Assembly: GCA_001769535.1 (NCBI GenBank)
Contig: MEOH01000010.1
Span: 128,414-192,413 of the forward strand
Direction: 5' to 3'
Length of the DNA stretch: 64,000 bases
From: Bacteroidetes bacterium GWF2_38_335
Lineage (GTDB): Bacteria; Bacteroidota; Bacteroidia; Bacteroidales; GWF2-38-335
Shown: piece after piece, positions 3,001 to 59,446 of the stretch
Layout of the letters: each line of letters starts with the position of its first letter
Numbering within the stretch: position 1 is the first letter of the stretch
Translations under genes and position numbers: made by a program
Notes under the pieces: generated by a model
The model's input: only the letters and a program-made list of their open reading frames with translations
Databases searched by the model: none
What the model was told of the DNA's origin: nothing

Positions 3001-3755
3001 ATTTTCCCAATTCTTTCTCTGGCAGCAGGGATTGAGTCGGGATGAACAAAGCTTATAACTGGTTTTCCAATCAGGTTATTATAATCCGGGTTACCAAAAA
3101 AGTTTACTGCAGCCTGATTTGCCATTTCAAGAATGCCTTCACAATGAACAACAATTGGAAGAGGTGAAATGTCAAACAGATTTTGATATTTTTCTTCTGA
3201 ATCCTGGACTTCCTGTGTTTTTAAAAGGGTTTCATCAAGAGTAGACCTTAATTCTTCGTTTTGGGAAGCATATTCTTCATTTAGAGAAGTATATTCCTCA
3301 TTTTGTTTTTTTAAAAGTTCTTCGGCTTTTTTAGAAACAGTTACATCTTCAATAATACCAATTCCTTCATTAATTTTTCCGGATTCATTTTTAATGCCTC
3401 TGAAAATGGCAATGACCGGAGTGGTTTTTTTTGCGGTAATTGATTTGTATTCACCATCATAATATCCGGTTCCTGATTTCAATGATCTTTTTATTTCCTC
3501 AATAATCTGTTTATTGTCAAGGCGGTTTAACATATCCAGTCCGACAAGTGCCTCTCGGGATGAACCAATGATTTCAACGAACTTATCATTGCAGTCGGTG
3601 ATTACACCTTCTGAATTATAGTGGAAAAGTCCAATTGGCGAGTGTTCATATATTGTCTGGTAAACAGGATAGACCTGTTTTTTCAACTCCATATTTTCTT
3701 TTTCCAGTCGCTTTATCTTTTCAAGCAGCTCTTTTTCGGACAGGTTTTTATCCAT
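1..3755 (-). CDS. Multi-PAS/PAC sensor protein; about 1251 N-terminal aa are visible and the C-terminal output domain lies beyond the window edge
   Basis: Own translation of the minus strand. ATG at 3755-3753 (MDKNLSEKELLEKIKRLEKENMELKK...) with no in-frame stop down to base 1. At least nine PAS/PAC units end in DIT(E/D)RK-like motifs (FNDITERKK, IIDITERKQ, FHDLTDRKN, FKDITEKRK, NKDITDRIE). It is missing from the ORF track only because it has no stop codon inside the window. Confidence 0.85.
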   Translation of the reverse strand, partial: MDKNLSEKELLEKIKRLEKENMELKKQVYPVYQTIYEHSPIGLFHYNSEGVITDCNDKFVEIIGSSREALVGLDMLNRLDNKQIIEEIKRSLKSGTGYYDGEYKSITAKKTTPVIAIFRGIKNESGKINEGIGIIEDVTVSKKAEELLKKQNEEYTSLNEEYASQNEELRSTLDETLLKTQEVQDSEEKYQNLFDISPLPIVVHCEGILEMANQAAVNFFGNPDYNNLIGKPVISFVHPDSIPAARERIGKILSEKGKADIYEEKFIISSGEYRDVEVAASAIKFKGKIAIQVIFNDITERKKIKDELVYNETKYRSFLQQSLDSVVLIDNQGKIVEWNRASEIIFELSREEVLGNYMWDTHYNMTPDFNKATITADYYKRKINGILKKKDSSQVGEFTTNMIKTKSGYKWIQSVVNIIEVNNEVFLASMSRDITEIRVKEQKIAESEKRFKDIANLLPQTVFEIDLEGNIRFINDNGLKCFGYTIPDYEKGLTITQLFPEIELKRVNDNFKKLIKGSNIDNVEYIACKKDKKTFPVLVYPAPIYSDDKLIGFRGFIIDITERKQFFARLEENERKFRMLAENMPGVIYLCNNDLNYSMLFLNDEVENLTGYPKEIFMTGKLNFTDIYHPDDLQKIYDTVNKAVSEKKSFYLFYRIKHKKGHYIWVEEFGGPVYDEKGELIYLEGYIHNITSRIENEEALKESEVKFRSFMETASDMMNIADKDLKLVYVNKSFCEILGYDSSEVIGRHVSDFFHPDEVADKFSNFKHSTLVKEGRVDYETVWLKKNGEKIYGELKVVGTFDENGNFSGSYGVFHDLTDRKNIEEKNKALSDAAFEALIFTERGKIIEINNAAVRLLGFKNAEELIGVDVTKYIPPQYSELVIKNMMANYEHPYEAAVFTKNNTIVPVEFQGKMYEYKGKQVRVTAVKDISARVEAEQALRESETRFKAIFENATDGILATDLNGRKFVFANPRILEITGYTMDEILSLNVSKFHPKESLPYVMECIQKQINGEPLAKDIPVIKKNGELIICDIESNKINIGGNELLVGFFKDITEKRKAEKALIKSEERLRNLLELSSDIIWEIDDKAKFTEVSPKIRQLLGYKEKEIIGREIFDLLPEEEAGEARVIYQKAFKKNIPIKDAVNSLIAKDGTKLFFEITAIPFFNDKGQLEGYRGINKDITDRIEAETALRNNEEKLKTIIRSAENVSFIMTDMSDDPKILEFSPGAEKIFGYNKEDVLGKSIRITHVLS

Positions 3756-13865: not shown

Positions 13866-15464
13866 TTAAAAACTTGTTATTTCAAAATTGACGGTGGCAA
13901 TAAGGAGCAGAAGTCCAATAACGGTGAGCATAAGTATCAAAGGCCAAACCCATTTGAACCATTTATCGTAAGGGATTTTTGCAATTCCGAGTGCTCCGAT
14001 CAAAACACCTGAGGCAGGGGTAATCATGTTGGTAATTCCGTCGCCAAACTGGAAAGCCAGCACAACGGCTTGTTTTGAAATGCCTGCCAGATCGGCAAAC
14101 GGGGCCATAATTGGCATCATCAGAGCAGCTTTTGCTGAACCTGATGGTATTAAAATATTCATTCCTGTAGTGATTCCATACATGGCGCTTACCGAGCCGG
14201 TTTCACCAATGCCTTTCATGGAGTCGGAAACAGAATACATAAAAGTGTCCATTATTTTTCCATCCTGCAGCAATACTATAATTCCACCAGCCAGCCCAAC
14301 AATCAGAGCCGCTGATAATATATCCCTGACTCCGTCGAGAAATGATTTGGTTACTTCGTTTGCATTCATGCCTACGGCAAATCCTGAAATCAATCCCATT
14401 ACAAAGAATAAAGTCCCTATTTCAACCACATACCAGCCATATCCCATGGCACCCACAATCAGGAAAACTACGGTAAACATCAATAAATTAATGATATAAA
14501 AATGTACGGATTTTAAAAGGGTTAAGAAGCCGGTCAGGGCAAAAAGACCAGCGCAAATTGGTACGGCAGGAAAAACTATTGATTTATTACCCACCGTGAG
14601 TGTGGTTTCAGGGTATTCATAAGCAAATAACGCCAATGCAATAACTGTGAGGATATGGGTAACCCATGCGCTTACAGGAGTGTAATATTTAATTTTTTCT
14701 TCATTTACCGAATGTTGGCTTCTCCAATATTCATCGGCTTCGTACATGACTGATTTTTTCGGATTTTTTTTGATTTTTGCGGCATAAAAAAGAATAAAAG
14801 CAAAGCCTGCAGTATTCAAAATCAGCCAGCAGATAAACCTGTATTCAAATCCTGAGAACATCGGAACTTCAGCAATGCCCTGTGCAATACCAATTGTAAA
14901 CGGATTAAAGATTGCACCGGCAAACCCGATATGTGCGGCAACATAGACCAGGCAGACACCGACAATGCTGTCATAACCCATTGAAATAGCCAACGGAACC
15001 ATGATTACAATAAATGCGATGGTTTCTTCACTCATTCCAAAAATAGCTCCGAAAGCACTGAACATAAGCATGATGAGAACCATTACAATGTTGTTGACTC
15101 CGACTTTTTGCATGAATCTGTATTTTTCAAGTCTTCGTATCATTCTAAGAAAGACCATAATTCCAACATCCAAAGATTTGGTAGAGTTCATGATCCAGAA
15201 GGCACCGCCAATAAGCAAAATAAATATGATTATATGCGATTGGTTGGTGAAACCCGTAAAAAAAGCCGAAAAAACCTGCCATGTTTGGGGTATGCTGTCA
15301 ACTTCGTGATAGCTGCCATCAGCCACAACACTTTTTACCGAACCGTCTTCGAGTGTTTTATCAATTCGGTCGTATTCACCAGCAGGCACAATCCAGGTAA
15401 GGACTGCAATGATAATCATGATCATGAAAACGATGACGTATGTGTGGGGTACTTTCTTCAGCAT
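13866..15464 (-). CDS. YfcC/DcuC-superfamily polytopic membrane transporter
   Basis: ORF track, 532 aa. N-terminus MLKKVPHTYVIVFMIMIIIAVLTWIVPAGEYDR is characteristic of YfcC-family proteins. Many hydrophobic segments throughout. Confidence 0.75.
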   Translation of the reverse strand: MLKKVPHTYVIVFMIMIIIAVLTWIVPAGEYDRIDKTLEDGSVKSVVADGSYHEVDSIPQTWQVFSAFFTGFTNQSHIIIFILLIGGAFWIMNSTKSLDVGIMVFLRMIRRLEKYRFMQKVGVNNIVMVLIMLMFSAFGAIFGMSEETIAFIVIMVPLAISMGYDSIVGVCLVYVAAHIGFAGAIFNPFTIGIAQGIAEVPMFSGFEYRFICWLILNTAGFAFILFYAAKIKKNPKKSVMYEADEYWRSQHSVNEEKIKYYTPVSAWVTHILTVIALALFAYEYPETTLTVGNKSIVFPAVPICAGLFALTGFLTLLKSVHFYIINLLMFTVVFLIVGAMGYGWYVVEIGTLFFVMGLISGFAVGMNANEVTKSFLDGVRDILSAALIVGLAGGIIVLLQDGKIMDTFMYSVSDSMKGIGETGSVSAMYGITTGMNILIPSGSAKAALMMPIMAPFADLAGISKQAVVLAFQFGDGITNMITPASGVLIGALGIAKIPYDKWFKWVWPLILMLTVIGLLLLIATVNFEITSF

Positions 15465-15587
15465 GGCATTTTTTTTATGGGTGCTAAAATAGGAAAAAGT
15501 TTGTAAAGTTCACATTATGCGGTTTTCTGTTTATGCGAAAATATCGCCGGTTTCCAATTGTTTGTTTTTTAACCGTTTGTTTATTTT

Positions 15588-16176
15588 TGACTTGATGGAC
15601 TTCCAACTTTATGGACTTTCGACTTTATGGACTTTCGACTTTATGGACTTTGTAAACTTATCTTCTGATTAATTTTATCATTCATTTCCGCCGGAATGGG
15701 GCTTTTTGTTCTAATATGTATGTGGCCGGCGGTTTGGATTCTTTCATTATTAAACCCCGGCTTGAAAGCCGGGGCTGAATTTAGCCGGCCTTACAGGCCT
15801 GGATTACAAAAGAAAAAACTTCATCGACTTGATGAACTTTCGACTTTAAAGACTTTTAGCTTTACGGACTTTCGACTTTATGCACTTTTGACTTTATGGA
15901 CTTTCGACTTTATGGACTTTGTAACTTACCTTCTGATTGAACTTTTTCATTAATTCCGCCGGAAAAGGATTTTTCGTTCCAAGGTGTTCATGACCGGCGG
16001 TTTGGCTAATCTAACCTTTAAACCCCGGCTTGAAAGCCGGGGCTGAATTTAGCCGGCCCTGCAGGCCTGGGTAGCGGAAGAAAAAGCTTTAGCGACTTTA
16101 TGGACTTTCAACTTTACAGACTTTTAGCTTTACGGACTTTCAACTTTACGGACTTTCGACTTTATGGACTTTCATC
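15588..16176. repeat. Two diverged copies of a GC-rich hairpin element embedded in 8-nt phased GACTTT microrepeats
   Basis: Cores at about 15645-15810 and 15914-16080 share CCGCCGG...CCGGCGG and AAACCCCGGCTTGAAAGCCGGGGCTGAATTTAGCCGGCC. They are flanked by tracts such as CGACTTTATGGACTTTCGACTTTATGGACTTT. Same family as 58728-59390. Confidence 0.9.
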
Positions 16177-16276
16177 TTTAATCCATTTAATATCTTTTAA
16201 CTTTTTTTTCACAAACAAAAAGAATTTATAGCTTTATCTTTATCAGGCAATTAAAAAAGTATTAAAAAAAACTAAT

Positions 16277-16624
16277 ATGGAAAATTTCAACAAAAACTGG
16301 CTGGCAATCATGCTGATTTCATTTGTATTCCTGGTACTTGGCTTTTTACTGGGATGGGTTTTGAAACCCTGTCATGGTGACAAATTTCAAAAAATGATGC
16401 ATAAGGAAATGATGATGAATCCTCACAGTGGAGGTGGCTGCATGGGCGGTATGGAAAGCTGCTGTCCTGGTGGCGGACAAGGAATGTTTGACATGTCCAT
16501 GTGTGGTGGTGACATGGATTCTCTGAAAAACATTGATGTTAAAGTCACTGTTGATGATGAGGGCAATGTTACAAAATCTGCATGTTGCTCAAAGTCAAAA
16601 GTTATCGTTAAAAAAGTAGAATAA
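16277..16624 (+). CDS. Small membrane-anchored Met/Cys/Gly-rich protein (possible metal-binding protein)
   Basis: ORF track, 115 aa. N-terminal TM segment NWLAIMLISFVFLVLGFLLGWVL. Then MMHKEMMMNPHSGGGCMGGMESCCPGGGQGMFDMSMCGGDMD. A terminator follows. Confidence 0.6.
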   Translation: MENFNKNWLAIMLISFVFLVLGFLLGWVLKPCHGDKFQKMMHKEMMMNPHSGGGCMGGMESCCPGGGQGMFDMSMCGGDMDSLKNIDVKVTVDDEGNVTKSACCSKSKVIVKKVE

Positions 16625-51285: not shown

Positions 51286-52008
51286 ATGAAAAAACTGATT
51301 CTTTTAATTTCGGTATTCACGTTAATCAACGGATTAAATGCACAGGACGAAAAAACCTGGTACAATCTTGCCATCAAGGGAGGATACGGCAACTGTATTT
51401 TTTTCAATGCCAATTATTCATCCGATGTTGCTGTTGATTACAATTACATGTCGCCAAGCTTTTTTTACGGACTTGATGCAGGAGTGGTATTCCCGGGAGG
51501 ATTCAGTTTGGGATTGGAATATTCAATCCAGAAAATGGGACAGGAATATGATATTGTTCCGGTATTGGGATCAGCCTATACCAAAAGAATAAATGTTTAC
51601 TCCAATGATTTTCTTTTTTTAATAAGGGCATTTGATGAAGGTTTCGGATATTTTGAAATAGGACCGAAATTGTCAATGGTCAAAAAAGTCACAGATAAAA
51701 ATTCAGATAATTCACTCAGTTATGTGAACTCAGGCAATTATGGAGAATATTATAATGATATGTTTATAAGTATTATGTTTGGATTTGGTATTCCGGTTTA
51801 TCACGGAGACCTTTTTGATTTCACCATTGGATTGCGCGGCGGCTATTCAATTTCAAACCTGATGCTTGAAGAAAAAGCCCCCATAAACGATTTAGGTTAT
51901 CCGGTTCTGGCTCCGGACAGCTATGCCACCACCAATCCGTTTTTTGCCCAGCTAACCATGCGCTTTGACTGGCATATCGGGATAAAGAATACCAAGAGTA
52001 GTTGGTAG
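51286..52008 (+). CDS. Outer-membrane beta-barrel protein (porin-family-like)
   Basis: ORF track frame trimmed to Met121 (MKKLILLISVFTLINGLNAQ; alternative start at 51259). Alternating beta pattern. C-terminal aromatic residue (SSW). Confidence 0.65.
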   Translation: MKKLILLISVFTLINGLNAQDEKTWYNLAIKGGYGNCIFFNANYSSDVAVDYNYMSPSFFYGLDAGVVFPGGFSLGLEYSIQKMGQEYDIVPVLGSAYTKRINVYSNDFLFLIRAFDEGFGYFEIGPKLSMVKKVTDKNSDNSLSYVNSGNYGEYYNDMFISIMFGFGIPVYHGDLFDFTIGLRGGYSISNLMLEEKAPINDLGYPVLAPDSYATTNPFFAQLTMRFDWHIGIKNTKSSW

Positions 52009-52013
52009 TGATT

Positions 52014-52784
52014 ATGGGGTACAGATTTGGTTTTCAAGGTCAAGAAGCTGAAAACGAAATTGCAGGCCAAACTGGAAGCCATTCGTTTTTCAAATACAGA
52101 ATCTCTGATAATAGGATTGGGCGGTTTTTTGCGGTTGACCCGTTGATGGCTAAATATCCATGGAATTCTCCTTATGCGTTTTGTGAGAATAAAGTTATTC
52201 AATTTATTGAATTGGAAGGGCTTGAAGCAACTGAAAATAGGGGTAATAGTGAAATTAATATGGAAGTAATAACATATTATCCATTACCCAAAGAATCAAC
52301 AAAAGAGGAAATAGAGGCATTTAAGAATAACCCAATGAATATATGTAATAAGCCGATTGAAGAACCAGAAGGACTCCAAAGGAAAGCTGATGGCTTACCT
52401 GTCATGAATGTTCAACACCGCAAATCTGTTGGTGGATCATCATGGTTTAAACCGCCAAATTATTATTTAGTATGGGATGGAGGAGGCACATCCAATAGTG
52501 ATGAATCAATGGATACTGGACTGGTTCCCTTTGAAGAAGACTGGACTGTATATGCCTATGTAAAACGTTCACATAGAAGAAAATTTGAAAAGCAGTGGGA
52601 AGCTGAAGGACGAAAAGAAAGAATTGTTTATTTAAAGGAGAAAATTACGACTTCTGACGGTACCTTCACTAAGAAAGATGGACAGCAAGTAATTTACGTT
52701 AAGAAAAGAGAAGTTCAAGATTTGAAACCTGATGATAAGATTATTGAAGAGACTCAATTGAGAAATTTAGATAATATTCAATAG
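52014..52784 (+). CDS. Orphan Rhs/YD core-tip fragment fused to an unrecognised C-terminal toxin-like domain
   Basis: ORF track, 260 aa from TTG 52002; ATG at 52014. The first about 70 aa (GYRFGFQGQEAENEIAG...FKYRISDNRIGRFFAVDPLMAKYPWNSPYAFCENKVIQFIELEGLE) match the end of the RHS repeat-associated core. No YD-repeat shell lies upstream. The following about 185 aa contain no motif I recognise. Confidence 0.7.
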   Translation: MGYRFGFQGQEAENEIAGQTGSHSFFKYRISDNRIGRFFAVDPLMAKYPWNSPYAFCENKVIQFIELEGLEATENRGNSEINMEVITYYPLPKESTKEEIEAFKNNPMNICNKPIEEPEGLQRKADGLPVMNVQHRKSVGGSSWFKPPNYYLVWDGGGTSNSDESMDTGLVPFEEDWTVYAYVKRSHRRKFEKQWEAEGRKERIVYLKEKITTSDGTFTKKDGQQVIYVKKREVQDLKPDDKIIEETQLRNLDNIQ

Positions 52785-58251: not shown

Positions 58252-58716
58252 ATGGATTCAAAGCTGAACATTGATAAAACAGACATTCAGATTTTGCAAA
58301 TCATTCAGGAAGATTCAAAAATTGCCTATAAGGATATTGCACAAAAACTGGACATTTCCCTTGGTACTGTCCATGTCAGGATTAAAAAACTCGAGTCCAT
58401 GAATGTGATCAAAGATTTCACCGTTAACCTTGACTATTTCCAGTTGGGATACGAACTGATGGCTTTTATCGGGTTGATCATCAACGGTAAACAGGCTGAT
58501 AATGTAATCAAGGCACTCGAAAAAGTTCCCGAAATTGCTGAACTTCATCATACCACTGGTGGTTATCATATGCTGGCTAAGATTATCTGCAAAAACACCC
58601 ATGTTTTAAGGAATATCATTATCCATAAGATCAATTCCATTGAAGGCATCGAAAAAACCGAGACGATTGTTTCGTTGGCTGAGTTATTCCACAGAAAGAT
58701 TCAGATTGAGGAGTAA
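58252..58716 (+). CDS. Lrp/AsnC-family transcriptional regulator
   Basis: ORF track, 154 aa. N-terminal HTH DKTDIQILQIIQEDSKIAYKDIAQKLDISLGTVHVRIKKLE and a C-terminal RAM-like domain. Confidence 0.85.
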   Translation: MDSKLNIDKTDIQILQIIQEDSKIAYKDIAQKLDISLGTVHVRIKKLESMNVIKDFTVNLDYFQLGYELMAFIGLIINGKQADNVIKALEKVPEIAELHHTTGGYHMLAKIICKNTHVLRNIIIHKINSIEGIEKTETIVSLAELFHRKIQIEE

Positions 58717-58727
58717 ACGCGGGTTGA

Positions 58728-59390
58728 TAGACTTTCGACTTGATGGACTTTAATAATCTTACCTTCTGATTAATTTCATCATTCATTTCCGCCGGAAAAG
58801 TATTTTTGGTTTTTATAACATTTTGGCCGGCGGTTTGTCTATTCTAACCTTTAAACCCCGGCTTGAAAGCCGGGGCTGAATTGAGCCGGCCTTACAGGCC
58901 TGGATTGCGGAAGAATAAGCTTTAACGACTTTATAGACTTTTGACTTGATGGACTTTAATAATCTTACCTTCTGATTAATTTCATCATTCATTTCCGCCG
59001 GAAAAGTATTTTTGGTTTTTATAACATTTTGGCCGGCGGTTTGTCTATTCTAACCTTTAAACCCCGGCTTGAAAGCCGGGGCTGAATTGAGCCGGCCTTA
59101 CAGGCCTGGATTGCGGAAGAATAAGCTTTAACGACTTTATAGACTTTTGACTTGATGGACTTTAATAATCTTACCTTCTGATTAATTTCATCATTCATTT
59201 CCGCCGGAAAAGTATTTTTGGTTTTTATAACATTTTGGCCGGCGGTTTATCTATTCTAACCTTTAAACCCCGGCTTGAAAGCTGGGGCTGAATTGAGCCG
59301 GCCTTACAGGCCTGGATTGCGGAAGAATAAGCTTTAACGACTTTATAGACTTTTGACTTGATGGACTTTCGACTATACAGACTTTCCAAC
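58728..59390. repeat. Three near-identical tandem 206-bp units of the GC-rich hairpin/GACTTT element
   Basis: GGACTTTAAT recurs at 58745, 58951 and 59157 (period 206). I found only two substitutions among the units. No ORF of 60 aa or more on either strand in the track. Confidence 0.92.
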
Positions 59391-59446
59391 TAATTTTGAT
59401 ATTCGGCAATCAATCTTTAACTTCGTGGTTTAATAAATAATTGGAT

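Follow-up and report, generated by a model that had tools for sequence, protein, structure and literature searches.

A 64,000-nucleotide stretch of contig MEOH01000010.1 from Bacteroidetes bacterium GWF2_38_335 (here called the window, in whose numbering coordinates are given unless another locus is named) contains a hairpin-rich intergenic tandem repeat at 15585–16180, which we call array A. It consists of 2.2 head-to-tail units with a period of 268. Each unit carries the Acido-Lenti-1 motif (Rfam family RF01687), a motif already known to Rfam that is met here in a phylum new to it and as part of a novel composite architecture. It is real, non-random and under selection. Tentatively, and with a probability of about 0.4, we read array A as a two-unit array of a dispersed, modular, hairpin-rich intergenic repeat, which would be the Bacteroidota branch of the Acido-Lenti-1 class and would resemble repetitive extragenic palindromic (REP) sequences and bacterial interspersed mosaic elements (BIMEs), or BOX elements. 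This reading is ranked first because the element is multi-copy, clustered, modular and indifferent to its context and has no promoters, all of which must be set against the strong constraint on its stems.

Architecture of the repeat unit

Every unit has the same order: heptamer microsatellite, leader, hairpin H1, spacer, hairpin H2, linker and hairpin H3. The microsatellite is made up of GACTTTC/GACTTTATG heptamers and the leader is TCATTCATTT, at which conservation sets in abruptly in 16 of 16 units. H1 consists of CCGCCGG, a 31-nt loop and CCGGCGG. Next come an AU-rich spacer of 22 nt, H2, a linker of 12 nt and H3. In the first unit, A1, H2 is CCCCGGCU-UGAA-AGCCGGGG (15755–15774) and H3 is GGCC-TTACA-GGCC (15787–15799). 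The features of array A, and of a sister array B in the same window, are as follows.

15585–15651, + strand: upstream microsatellite of unit A1, GGACTTTCGACTTTAT in 4.2 copies, with GACTTT every 7 or 9 nt (Tandem Repeats Finder, sequence)
15652–15687, + strand: A1 junction, which contains the conserved block CTTATCTTCTGATT, and then the leader TCATTCATTT at 15678–15687 (alignments, upstream comparison)
15688–15732, + strand: A1 hairpin H1, CCGCCGG, 31-nt loop of subtype alpha, CCGGCGG (alignments)
15733–15754, + strand: A1 spacer, 22 nt, AU-rich, varying among units (alignments)
15755–15800, + strand: A1 match to RF01687, with H2 at 15755–15774, the 12-nt linker CTGAATTTAGCC and H3 at 15787–15799 (cmscan, 40.9 bits)
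15801–15920, + strand: inter-unit segment, type I extension TGGATTACAAAAGAAAAAACTTCA and then a six-copy 16-mer/heptamer array at 15824–15920 (sequence, Tandem Repeats Finder)
15921–16000, + strand: junction of unit A2, leader TTCATTAATT and H1 at 15956–16000 with a loop of subtype beta (sequence, alignments)
16023–16068, + strand: A2 match to RF01687, with H2 at 16023–16042 and H3 at 16055–16067, H3 loop CTGCA (cmscan, 40.2 bits)
16069–16180, + strand: type I extension and terminal 5.4-copy 16-mer/heptamer array at 16095–16180 (sequence, Tandem Repeats Finder)
58727–59386, + strand: sister array B with three units of 206 bp that are 99% identical and have loops of subtype gamma (Tandem Repeats Finder, Rfam, covariance model)
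58761–58908, 58967–59114 and 59173–59320, + strand: covariance-model cores of array B
58856–58901, 59062–59107 and 59268–59313, + strand: Rfam matches of array B
59338–59386, + strand: terminal microsatellite of array B

Tandem Repeats Finder reports array A at 15597–16180 (period 268, 2.2 copies, 83% matches) and array B at 58727–59369 (period 206, 3.1 copies, 99% matches). An earlier note on this DNA, made from the letters alone, had placed two cores at 15645 and 15914 between the divergent genes for a YfcC-like transporter and a small Met/Cys-rich protein. Its coordinates are exact: GGACTTTGTAA is found at both positions, spaced by 269 bp, this 11-mer by itself being not above chance expectation. 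The 29-mer AAACCCCGGCTTGAAAGCCGGGGCTGAAT is more telling, with 0 occurrences expected by chance and five in the window, all on the + strand (starts at 15752, 16020, 58853, 59059 and 59265, the copy at 59265 with one mismatch). Beyond that note, the unit is now seen to include heptamer and 16-mer microsatellites, and its H2-linker-H3 segment to be a known Rfam motif.

The bacteroidotal arrays are strictly head-to-tail, and the unit is modular. In one unit (L044, 10251–10465) the H2/H3 module is present twice and the H3 loop carries an inserted hairpin, another has an insertion in H1 (L064), and a third has a replaced H2 (L061 unit 1). A search for extra helices, between leader and linker or between spacer and extension, gave only AU-rich or G.U-rich pairings in no consistent register.

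Relationship to the Acido-Lenti-1 motif

When the window was compared with Rfam, RF01687 was the sole family matched, and it covers H2, linker and H3 of all five units. The five matches are on the + strand, extend over model positions 1–46 of 46, and score 42.3, 42.3, 40.9, 40.2 and 37.1 bits, the curated gathering score being 37 bits. Outside the window, matches at L031 and L061 reach 44.7 and 44.5 bits. The cmscan alignments have a posterior probability of 1.00, and all pairs are canonical save a G.U in unit B3. The window copies also fit the layout of the family: an 8-bp hairpin with a 4-nt loop, a 12-nt linker starting with GGCU, a 4–5-bp hairpin with a 3–5-nt loop, and then CU. The seed consensus is CCYAGYnCUnACGn-RCYRGGCURnnnUAURnCGUnCYUYCRGnACU.

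The Acido-Lenti-1 motif was described by Weinberg et al. 2010, who assigned no function to it (PMC2864571). Its seed came from Acidobacteria, Lentisphaerae, Planctomycetes and metagenomes, Bacteroidota not being among them (PMC2864571). A 2026 preprint reports matches in Tannerella near protease genes and notes that little is known of the motif. Rfam types the family as an sRNA (small RNA) gene. Its seed is multi-copy, with about 55 members in Lentisphaera araneosa, often in tandem with periods of 69–74, 110–115, 192–200 and 240 nt. At one locus the copies face in alternating directions, and group II introns are found close to some members of the seed. The multi-copy, tandem pattern of the seed suits a dispersed repeat better than single-copy genes.

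The element described here is likewise multi-copy, intergenic and often head-to-tail at about 200 nt. It differs in that the motif forms only the 3' third of a larger fixed unit, to which the leader, H1 and the heptamer microsatellites are added. It differs also in that the stems are invariant in sequence within this genome, whereas the seed stems covary: the published seed has 10 covarying pairs, with several Watson-Crick pair types per position.

Conservation of stems and loops

The alignment shows the CCGCCGG/CCGGCGG arms, the H2 block and the GGCC/GGCC arms to be identical in all five window units. The earlier note's statement that the H1 arms and the H2 block are essentially invariant stands, the single mismatch being in the last copy of the 29-mer, and the three H1 interiors and two GGCC/GGCC-flanked H3 variants that it quoted are exact.

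The H1 loops of A1, A2 and B are 58–61% identical to one another, so that about 40% of positions differ, and by eye the spacers are similar in this respect. Yet all 38 stem positions are the same in the three. By our own arithmetic, the chance of 38 unchanged positions at about 40% divergence is ~0.6^38, or ~4e-9, for one unit pair. In 15 distinct units, 97.5% of the stem cells pair, a value reached by 0 of 500 shuffles. Set against loops that have diverged by about 40%, the invariant stems mean that selection is real.

The earlier note had concluded that selection acts on a fold or on a palindromic site, and had suggested covariation as a check. That the paired arms are selected is borne out, and the fold of H1 is not supported by covariation. 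Over the 15 distinct units, compensatory changes are found at 0 of 7 pairs in H1 and at none in H3. H2 has three pairs with double-sided changes, all in one unit (L061 unit 1, CUCGGGGC-GUU-GCCCCGGG). Because H1 has no compensatory change, covariation is uninformative on its fold, and its support comes only from the conserved inverted repeat. On sequence comparison H2 and H3 can be taken as real helices, supported chiefly by the wider Rfam family.

The loops are not free, contrary to what had been supposed. The H1 loop is 30–32 nt long (31 nt in 10 of 14 units), its consensus reads approximately GGAAnnGGGTTTTTYGTTCTAAKGTGTTCATGG, and three subtypes can be distinguished: alpha (A1, L044 unit 2, L050), beta (A2, L060, L064) and gamma (B, L044 unit 3, L031a, L034). 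Identity within a subtype is 77–84%.

Distribution in the species

In Bacteroidetes bacterium GWF2_38_335 the census stands at no fewer than 10 loci and at least 17 units, at unrelated intergenic sites. A metagenome scan anchored on H2 gave 37 loci, and the L-numbers used here denote loci from such scans. Those with the full architecture are L031/L052, L034, L036, L037/L060, L038/L061, L044/L054, L050 and L064. They were assigned to a species from contig identities and from the TypA protein of L061, which is encoded on a 544,990-bp contig and falls in the cluster "Bacteroidetes bacterium GWF2_38_335". A protein of the window is also present in the same Joint Genome Institute (JGI) sample as this TypA. 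On the TypA and contig identities the metagenome loci belong to one species together with the window, and the same evidence rules out a second organism sharing the loop subtypes.

A covariance model, R1, was built from 12 units. In the window it finds exactly five units, and it finds 11 more in other contigs of the species, including three variant units beside anchored ones. Its only other window matches are weak reverse-strand ones over the same units and one stray at 3349–3453 (E 0.38). On three loci from the nearest relatives R1 finds no unit, and the orthologous loci of these relatives (hutI 78–82% identical) have neither synteny nor copies. A scan of GTDB representatives with GGGGCTGAATTNAGCCGGCC gave only 10 chance matches, in coding DNA of unrelated phyla. 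Four scans of viral contigs (with the H2 block, with two H1 loops as possible guides, and with the H1+H2 architecture) gave nothing, and plasmid and phage collections gave no match.

Of the ten loci, five lie between divergent genes, four between co-directional ones and one between convergent ones. Read in the Rfam orientation, the element points to a downstream gene start at six of the ten and faces a gene end at the other four. The neighbouring genes are unrelated: a carrier, Lrp/HutI and a tRNA, and by eye from the sequence also an extracytoplasmic function (ECF) sigma factor, MazG and TypA. There is no consistent orientation or gene partner across loci. The earlier note had tied the element to a divergent promoter region, which holds for array A and does not hold generally.

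Locus B is assembled with one, two or three units in different assemblies, and many contigs break at arrays; the species' own metagenome-assembled genome has a contig that ends inside one. The gap between lrp and hutI (window 58716–59441; L021, L023, L025, L026, L070) is 319, 525 or 725 bp, corresponding to one, two or three units. This could reflect instability of the array, or equally the collapse of 99%-identical repeats by short-read assemblers. Another contig (L017, 1–200), upstream of the Met/Cys open reading frame (ORF), is a chimera with a B-type 5' half and an A2-type 3' half joined in the invariant H2 block. It would come either from ectopic recombination of arrays A and B or from chimeric assembly.

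Neighbours and borders of array A

Array A lies between two gene starts. On one side, 13866–15464 (- strand) encodes a DcuC/YfcC-type carrier (Pfam E=3e-95). On the other, the 3' end of the array is 97 nt ahead of the ATG at 16277 of a Met/Cys-rich ORF of 115 amino acids (16277–16624, + strand), which has no Pfam match. The product of this ORF is membrane-anchored, with tracts rich in Met, Cys and Gly (MMHKEMMMNPHSGGGCMGGMESCCPGGG), and may be a metal binder.

At the 5' border of array A there is a short inverted GACTTT-like array (15495–15519), 94% complementary to 16110–16125. The 5' border of the L050 element (1170–1201) also has an inverted short GACTTT-like array. Such inverted arrays are not general among the loci; they may be what is left of a unit in the opposite orientation.

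At L060 (929–1283) the element fills the entire 354-bp gap between two co-directional genes, its microsatellites running from the stop codon of one to 12 nt before the start of the next. The 5' untranslated region or the promoter of the downstream gene must therefore lie inside the element. Separately from the arrays, ORFs at about 52002–52781 (+ strand, window) and at L031 5461–6399 (- strand) are 90% identical over a segment of 70 amino acids, perhaps a domain that recurs or else a mobile gene fragment.

Heptamer repeats

Arrays of heptamers and of 16-nt (7+9) repeats are found within 130 nt of a core at every locus but L034. No comparable heptamer arrays were found away from cores in the scanned loci of the species, the other repeats reported by Tandem Repeats Finder being unrelated low-copy or A-rich ones. 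There are two recurring classes, GACTTYN and CAYAACY, which on inspection by eye follow the core in a consistent order.

Class 2 also includes (CCCATAA)n tracts, whose complementary strand has GGG runs 4 nt apart, the canonical G-quadruplex pattern, in a genome of 38% GC. They are at:

L060 929–1022 and 1199–1271
L064 671–724
L031 8042–8115

A distinct 16-nt tandem repeat, CGTAGAGACGCATGAT, which contains a perfect hairpin, is present in 2.7 copies at L061 4301–4343, directly upstream of the first unit.

Heptanucleotide simple-sequence repeats are known and unexplained, and occur in some bacteria including a few Bacteroidetes (MacGregor 2015, PMC4679880; for heptanucleotide repeats see also Mrazek 2007 as cited there). 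They include the cyanobacterial short tandemly repeated repetitive (STRR) sequences and the TAACTGA repeats of Beggiatoaceae, Cyanobacteria and some Bacteroidetes (PMC4679880). The heptamers described here are similar in being tandem 7-nt intergenic units, often near start codons, with several types per genome and no known function. They differ in being physically coupled to a structured hairpin core, a combination of which we found no report in the literature.

Which strand folds

In the 70 distinct RF01687 seed sequences, read on the annotated strand, there are 856 Watson-Crick, 38 A.C and 8 G.U pairs, many of the sequences being related copies, so that these counts are not independent events. 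An excess of A.C over G.U is the opposite of what is expected of an RNA on that strand, and on the complement the 38 become G.U. The flanks of the seed sequences, to which the same caution applies, contain 66 features: 38 opposite-strand stops, 10 same-strand starts, 10 same-strand stops and 8 opposite-strand starts. Together, pair counts and flank annotation suggest that RF01687 functions on the strand opposite to its annotation, downstream of genes; its strand in Rfam may be the wrong one. For the bacteroidotal units, folding energies compared with shuffles give z of -3.6 and -3.4 on the - strand and of -1.6 to -2.3 on the + strand.

A proposed dispersed intergenic repeat

On the reading we prefer, that of a dispersed repeat, the arrays would gain and lose units through slipped-strand mispairing or unequal crossing-over, for which the microsatellites and the identical GC blocks would provide the seeds. 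The functional entity would be a folded single strand: RNA when the intergenic region is transcribed, or possibly single-stranded DNA. A trans factor would recognise the three all-GC stems sequence-specifically, and this would explain why stem covariation is absent within the genome. The G-poor heptamer tracts would serve as unstructured spacers holding the hairpins apart. If neighbouring genes are affected, for instance through transcript stability, read-through or spacing, this would be a local and secondary effect.

The closest parallels are REP/BIME sequences with their REP-associated tyrosine transposases (RAYTs) in enterobacteria and Pseudomonas, and BOX in Streptococcus pneumoniae. Like the former, the element consists of short GC-rich extragenic palindromes that are dispersed, intergenic and clustered in arrays, and the RF01687 seed motif sometimes alternates in orientation, as do REPs within BIMEs. 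REPs are imperfect palindromes of 20–40 nt with a conserved GTAG/CTAC tetranucleotide at their base, and RAYT genes, which encode Y1 transposases, typically have REPs on either side. Unlike REPs, the element lacks this tetranucleotide, which is absent beside H1, H2 and H3 in the unit alignments, and no RAYT gene was seen near the loci. It is also arranged head-to-tail, has a unit of about 150–270 bp with three hairpins, and is known in tens rather than hundreds of copies. Pneumococcal BOX is a modular composite intergenic repeat that is predicted to fold stably, that does not encode a transposase and that includes one module with a varying number of tandem copies; its modules are 45–59 bp long and have no microsatellite component. 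The element resembles BOX in being modular, tandem-variable, intergenic and predicted to fold stably. There is no sequence relationship between them.

Several observations weigh against this reading. About 17 known units are few for a REP-type family. No transposase, RAYT, reverse transcriptase or recombinase was seen near the loci; more specifically, no transposase is among the Pfam families listed for about 20 kb around each window array, out of about 250 kb of the genome that was covered, the ORFs beside the other loci not having been scanned with Pfam. Nor does the element look like a miniature inverted-repeat transposable element (MITE): no terminal inverted repeats or target duplications that would mark an insertion unit were found, only internal hairpins and matches between microsatellites, and the borders of the element differ between loci. 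An empty-site comparison is impossible because the relatives share only about 82% HutI identity and no synteny. The differences in unit number may be due to assembly collapse. Variants among the bacteroidotal units leave the folded strand undecided, three favouring G.U on the - strand and two on the + strand. Finally, old paralogues with perfect stems and subtype-specific loops would argue for a host-level function of each copy, a point that fits small RNAs as well.

A range of other repeat-based systems was considered: clustered regularly interspaced short palindromic repeats (CRISPR), tandem interspaced guide RNA (TIGR) arrays, ToxI-type antitoxin arrays, integron attC sites, invertons, retrons, and bridge or omega RNAs. 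All were rejected on architecture: the unit has the wrong length, no protein gene adjoins it, and Rfam gives no match but RF01687.

Alternative explanations

The explanation ranked second, the main rival, which we consider rather unlikely, is that the units are related small-RNA genes on the + strand, each started just upstream of CATTCATTT. The U-rich loop of H1 (UUUUUYGUUCUAA...) would be the seed or a protein site, H2-H3 a stabilising 3' module, and a higher dosage would come from the tandem copies, as with Qrr or LhrC. The sharp onset of conservation at the leader, the purifying selection on the stems, the retention of each of the three loop subtypes in several paralogues (77–84% identity within, 58–61% between) and the Rfam typing as an sRNA gene all suit this proposal. 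It would account better than the dispersed-repeat reading for the perfect stems and subtype-specific loops of old paralogues and for the abrupt start of conservation at the leader. The Qrr1–5 and LhrC1–5 RNAs are tandem related small RNAs of about 100–150 nt with conserved stems and partly divergent loops. The units here are likewise tandem paralogues with those properties; they differ in that a promoter and terminator for each unit could not be demonstrated, in that at least 17 units at 10 loci are unusually many, and in that array periods in other phyla are too short for separate genes. In Lentisphaera, periods of 69–74 nt leave no room for a promoter per unit.

The housekeeping promoter consensus of Bacteroidetes is -33 TTTG / -7 TAnnTTTG. 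A box matching TAnnTTTG at 5 of 6 positions lies 10–11 nt upstream of H1 in A1, L044 unit 2 and L050. This is the best found on the + strand, in 3 of 16 units, and 20% of random windows do as well; upstream of H3 on the - strand the box is likewise no more frequent than in random windows. No sigma-70 promoter was found within array A, the sole match of the scan (15463–15490) being at the YfcC gene start. At the 3' end, units with a type II extension have a U-rich tract right after H3 (6–9 T in the following 15 nt), which favours small RNAs, and the window units, with only 2–3 T, do not. The excess of A.C over G.U in the seed on the Rfam strand is also the reverse of what is expected of a transcript.

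A bolder form of this idea seems to us quite improbable. It would make the units a set of at least 17 related regulatory RNAs, a class new to Bacteroidota, in which a trans protein binds the all-GC stems with the double hairpin as its handle, the loops and the leader CAUUCAUUU set the targets, and the heptamer tails are landing pads. The leader is complementary to AAAUGAAUG, which resembles a start-codon region, and in this scheme the tails would bind a single-strand-binding factor, for example a cold-shock-domain protein or Rho.

Less probable again is that the palindromes are regulator sites in the divergent promoter region between the YfcC gene and the small ORF, their copy number tuning the flanking genes. 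Five of the ten loci are in divergent intergenic regions, the stem sequence is invariant rather than covarying, and an Lrp/AsnC regulator gene abuts array B. This is, however, the only locus with a regulator gene nearby, and the element also lies between co-directional and convergent genes, directly after a stop codon in L034, and beside unrelated neighbours. The half-sites of H1 are 38 bp apart centre to centre, and a protein-bound duplex palindrome with arms 31 bp apart is unlikely. The covariation of H2 and H3 in the wider Rfam family speaks for pairing and not for read-out of a duplex.

We give still less weight to the proposal that the hairpins are terminators or insulators for the neighbouring genes, possibly on the strand opposite to the Rfam annotation. 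The 38 opposite-strand gene stops in the seed flanks speak for it, and the seed A.C excess points the same way; L060, L064 and L036 abut the stop codon of a convergent gene, and L034 directly follows one. Against it, no hairpin with a U-run was found on either strand at 15300–16400, and in the window copies neither H2 nor H3 is followed by a U-run, whichever strand is read. Classical terminators are in use in this organism, for example the hairpin and eight T after a small lipoprotein gene at L061. Moreover, at six of the ten loci the element is directed at the start of a downstream gene, and array A has a gene start on either side.

A small protein can be dismissed: an 85-amino-acid ORF at 15696–15953 exists and crosses one copy, as the earlier note said, but it has no Pfam match and its frame stops after 9 codons in A2 and, as that note also recognised for the copies at 58.7 kb, after 16 codons in the B units; since the frame is not conserved, a coding reading is already contradicted. 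The same holds for the short - strand ORFs that might start within GGAAATGAATGA. This 10-mer lies directly after H1 on the - strand in every unit (for example at window 58730–58800), with variants GGAAATGGAT in the L031 units and GGAATTAATGA in A2. The frames from its ATG, judged by eye, range from 4 to 59 codons (the 59-codon frame being in the B units), are shifted by indels between units and are not conserved. At L060 the same 10-mer overlaps the real start codon of a divergent gene. Gene callers also place ORFs of 51 amino acids (15517–15672, window) and 77 amino acids (L012, 9444–9677) inside arrays, and these calls are almost certainly spurious.

Significance

On the practical side, arrays of this kind break short-read assemblies and yield spurious ORF calls, such as those of 51, 77 and 85 amino acids. 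Acido-Lenti-1 has been in Rfam since 2010 with neither a function nor recognised members in Bacteroidota. Here the motif is part of a larger unit that has sharp boundaries, one more hairpin and heptamer repeats and that is under clear purifying selection at 10 or more loci, and this provides a workable case in which to look for function. If the strand of RF01687 is wrong, the interpretation of its matches changes everywhere. If the units are regulatory RNAs, this would be the first function for Acido-Lenti-1.

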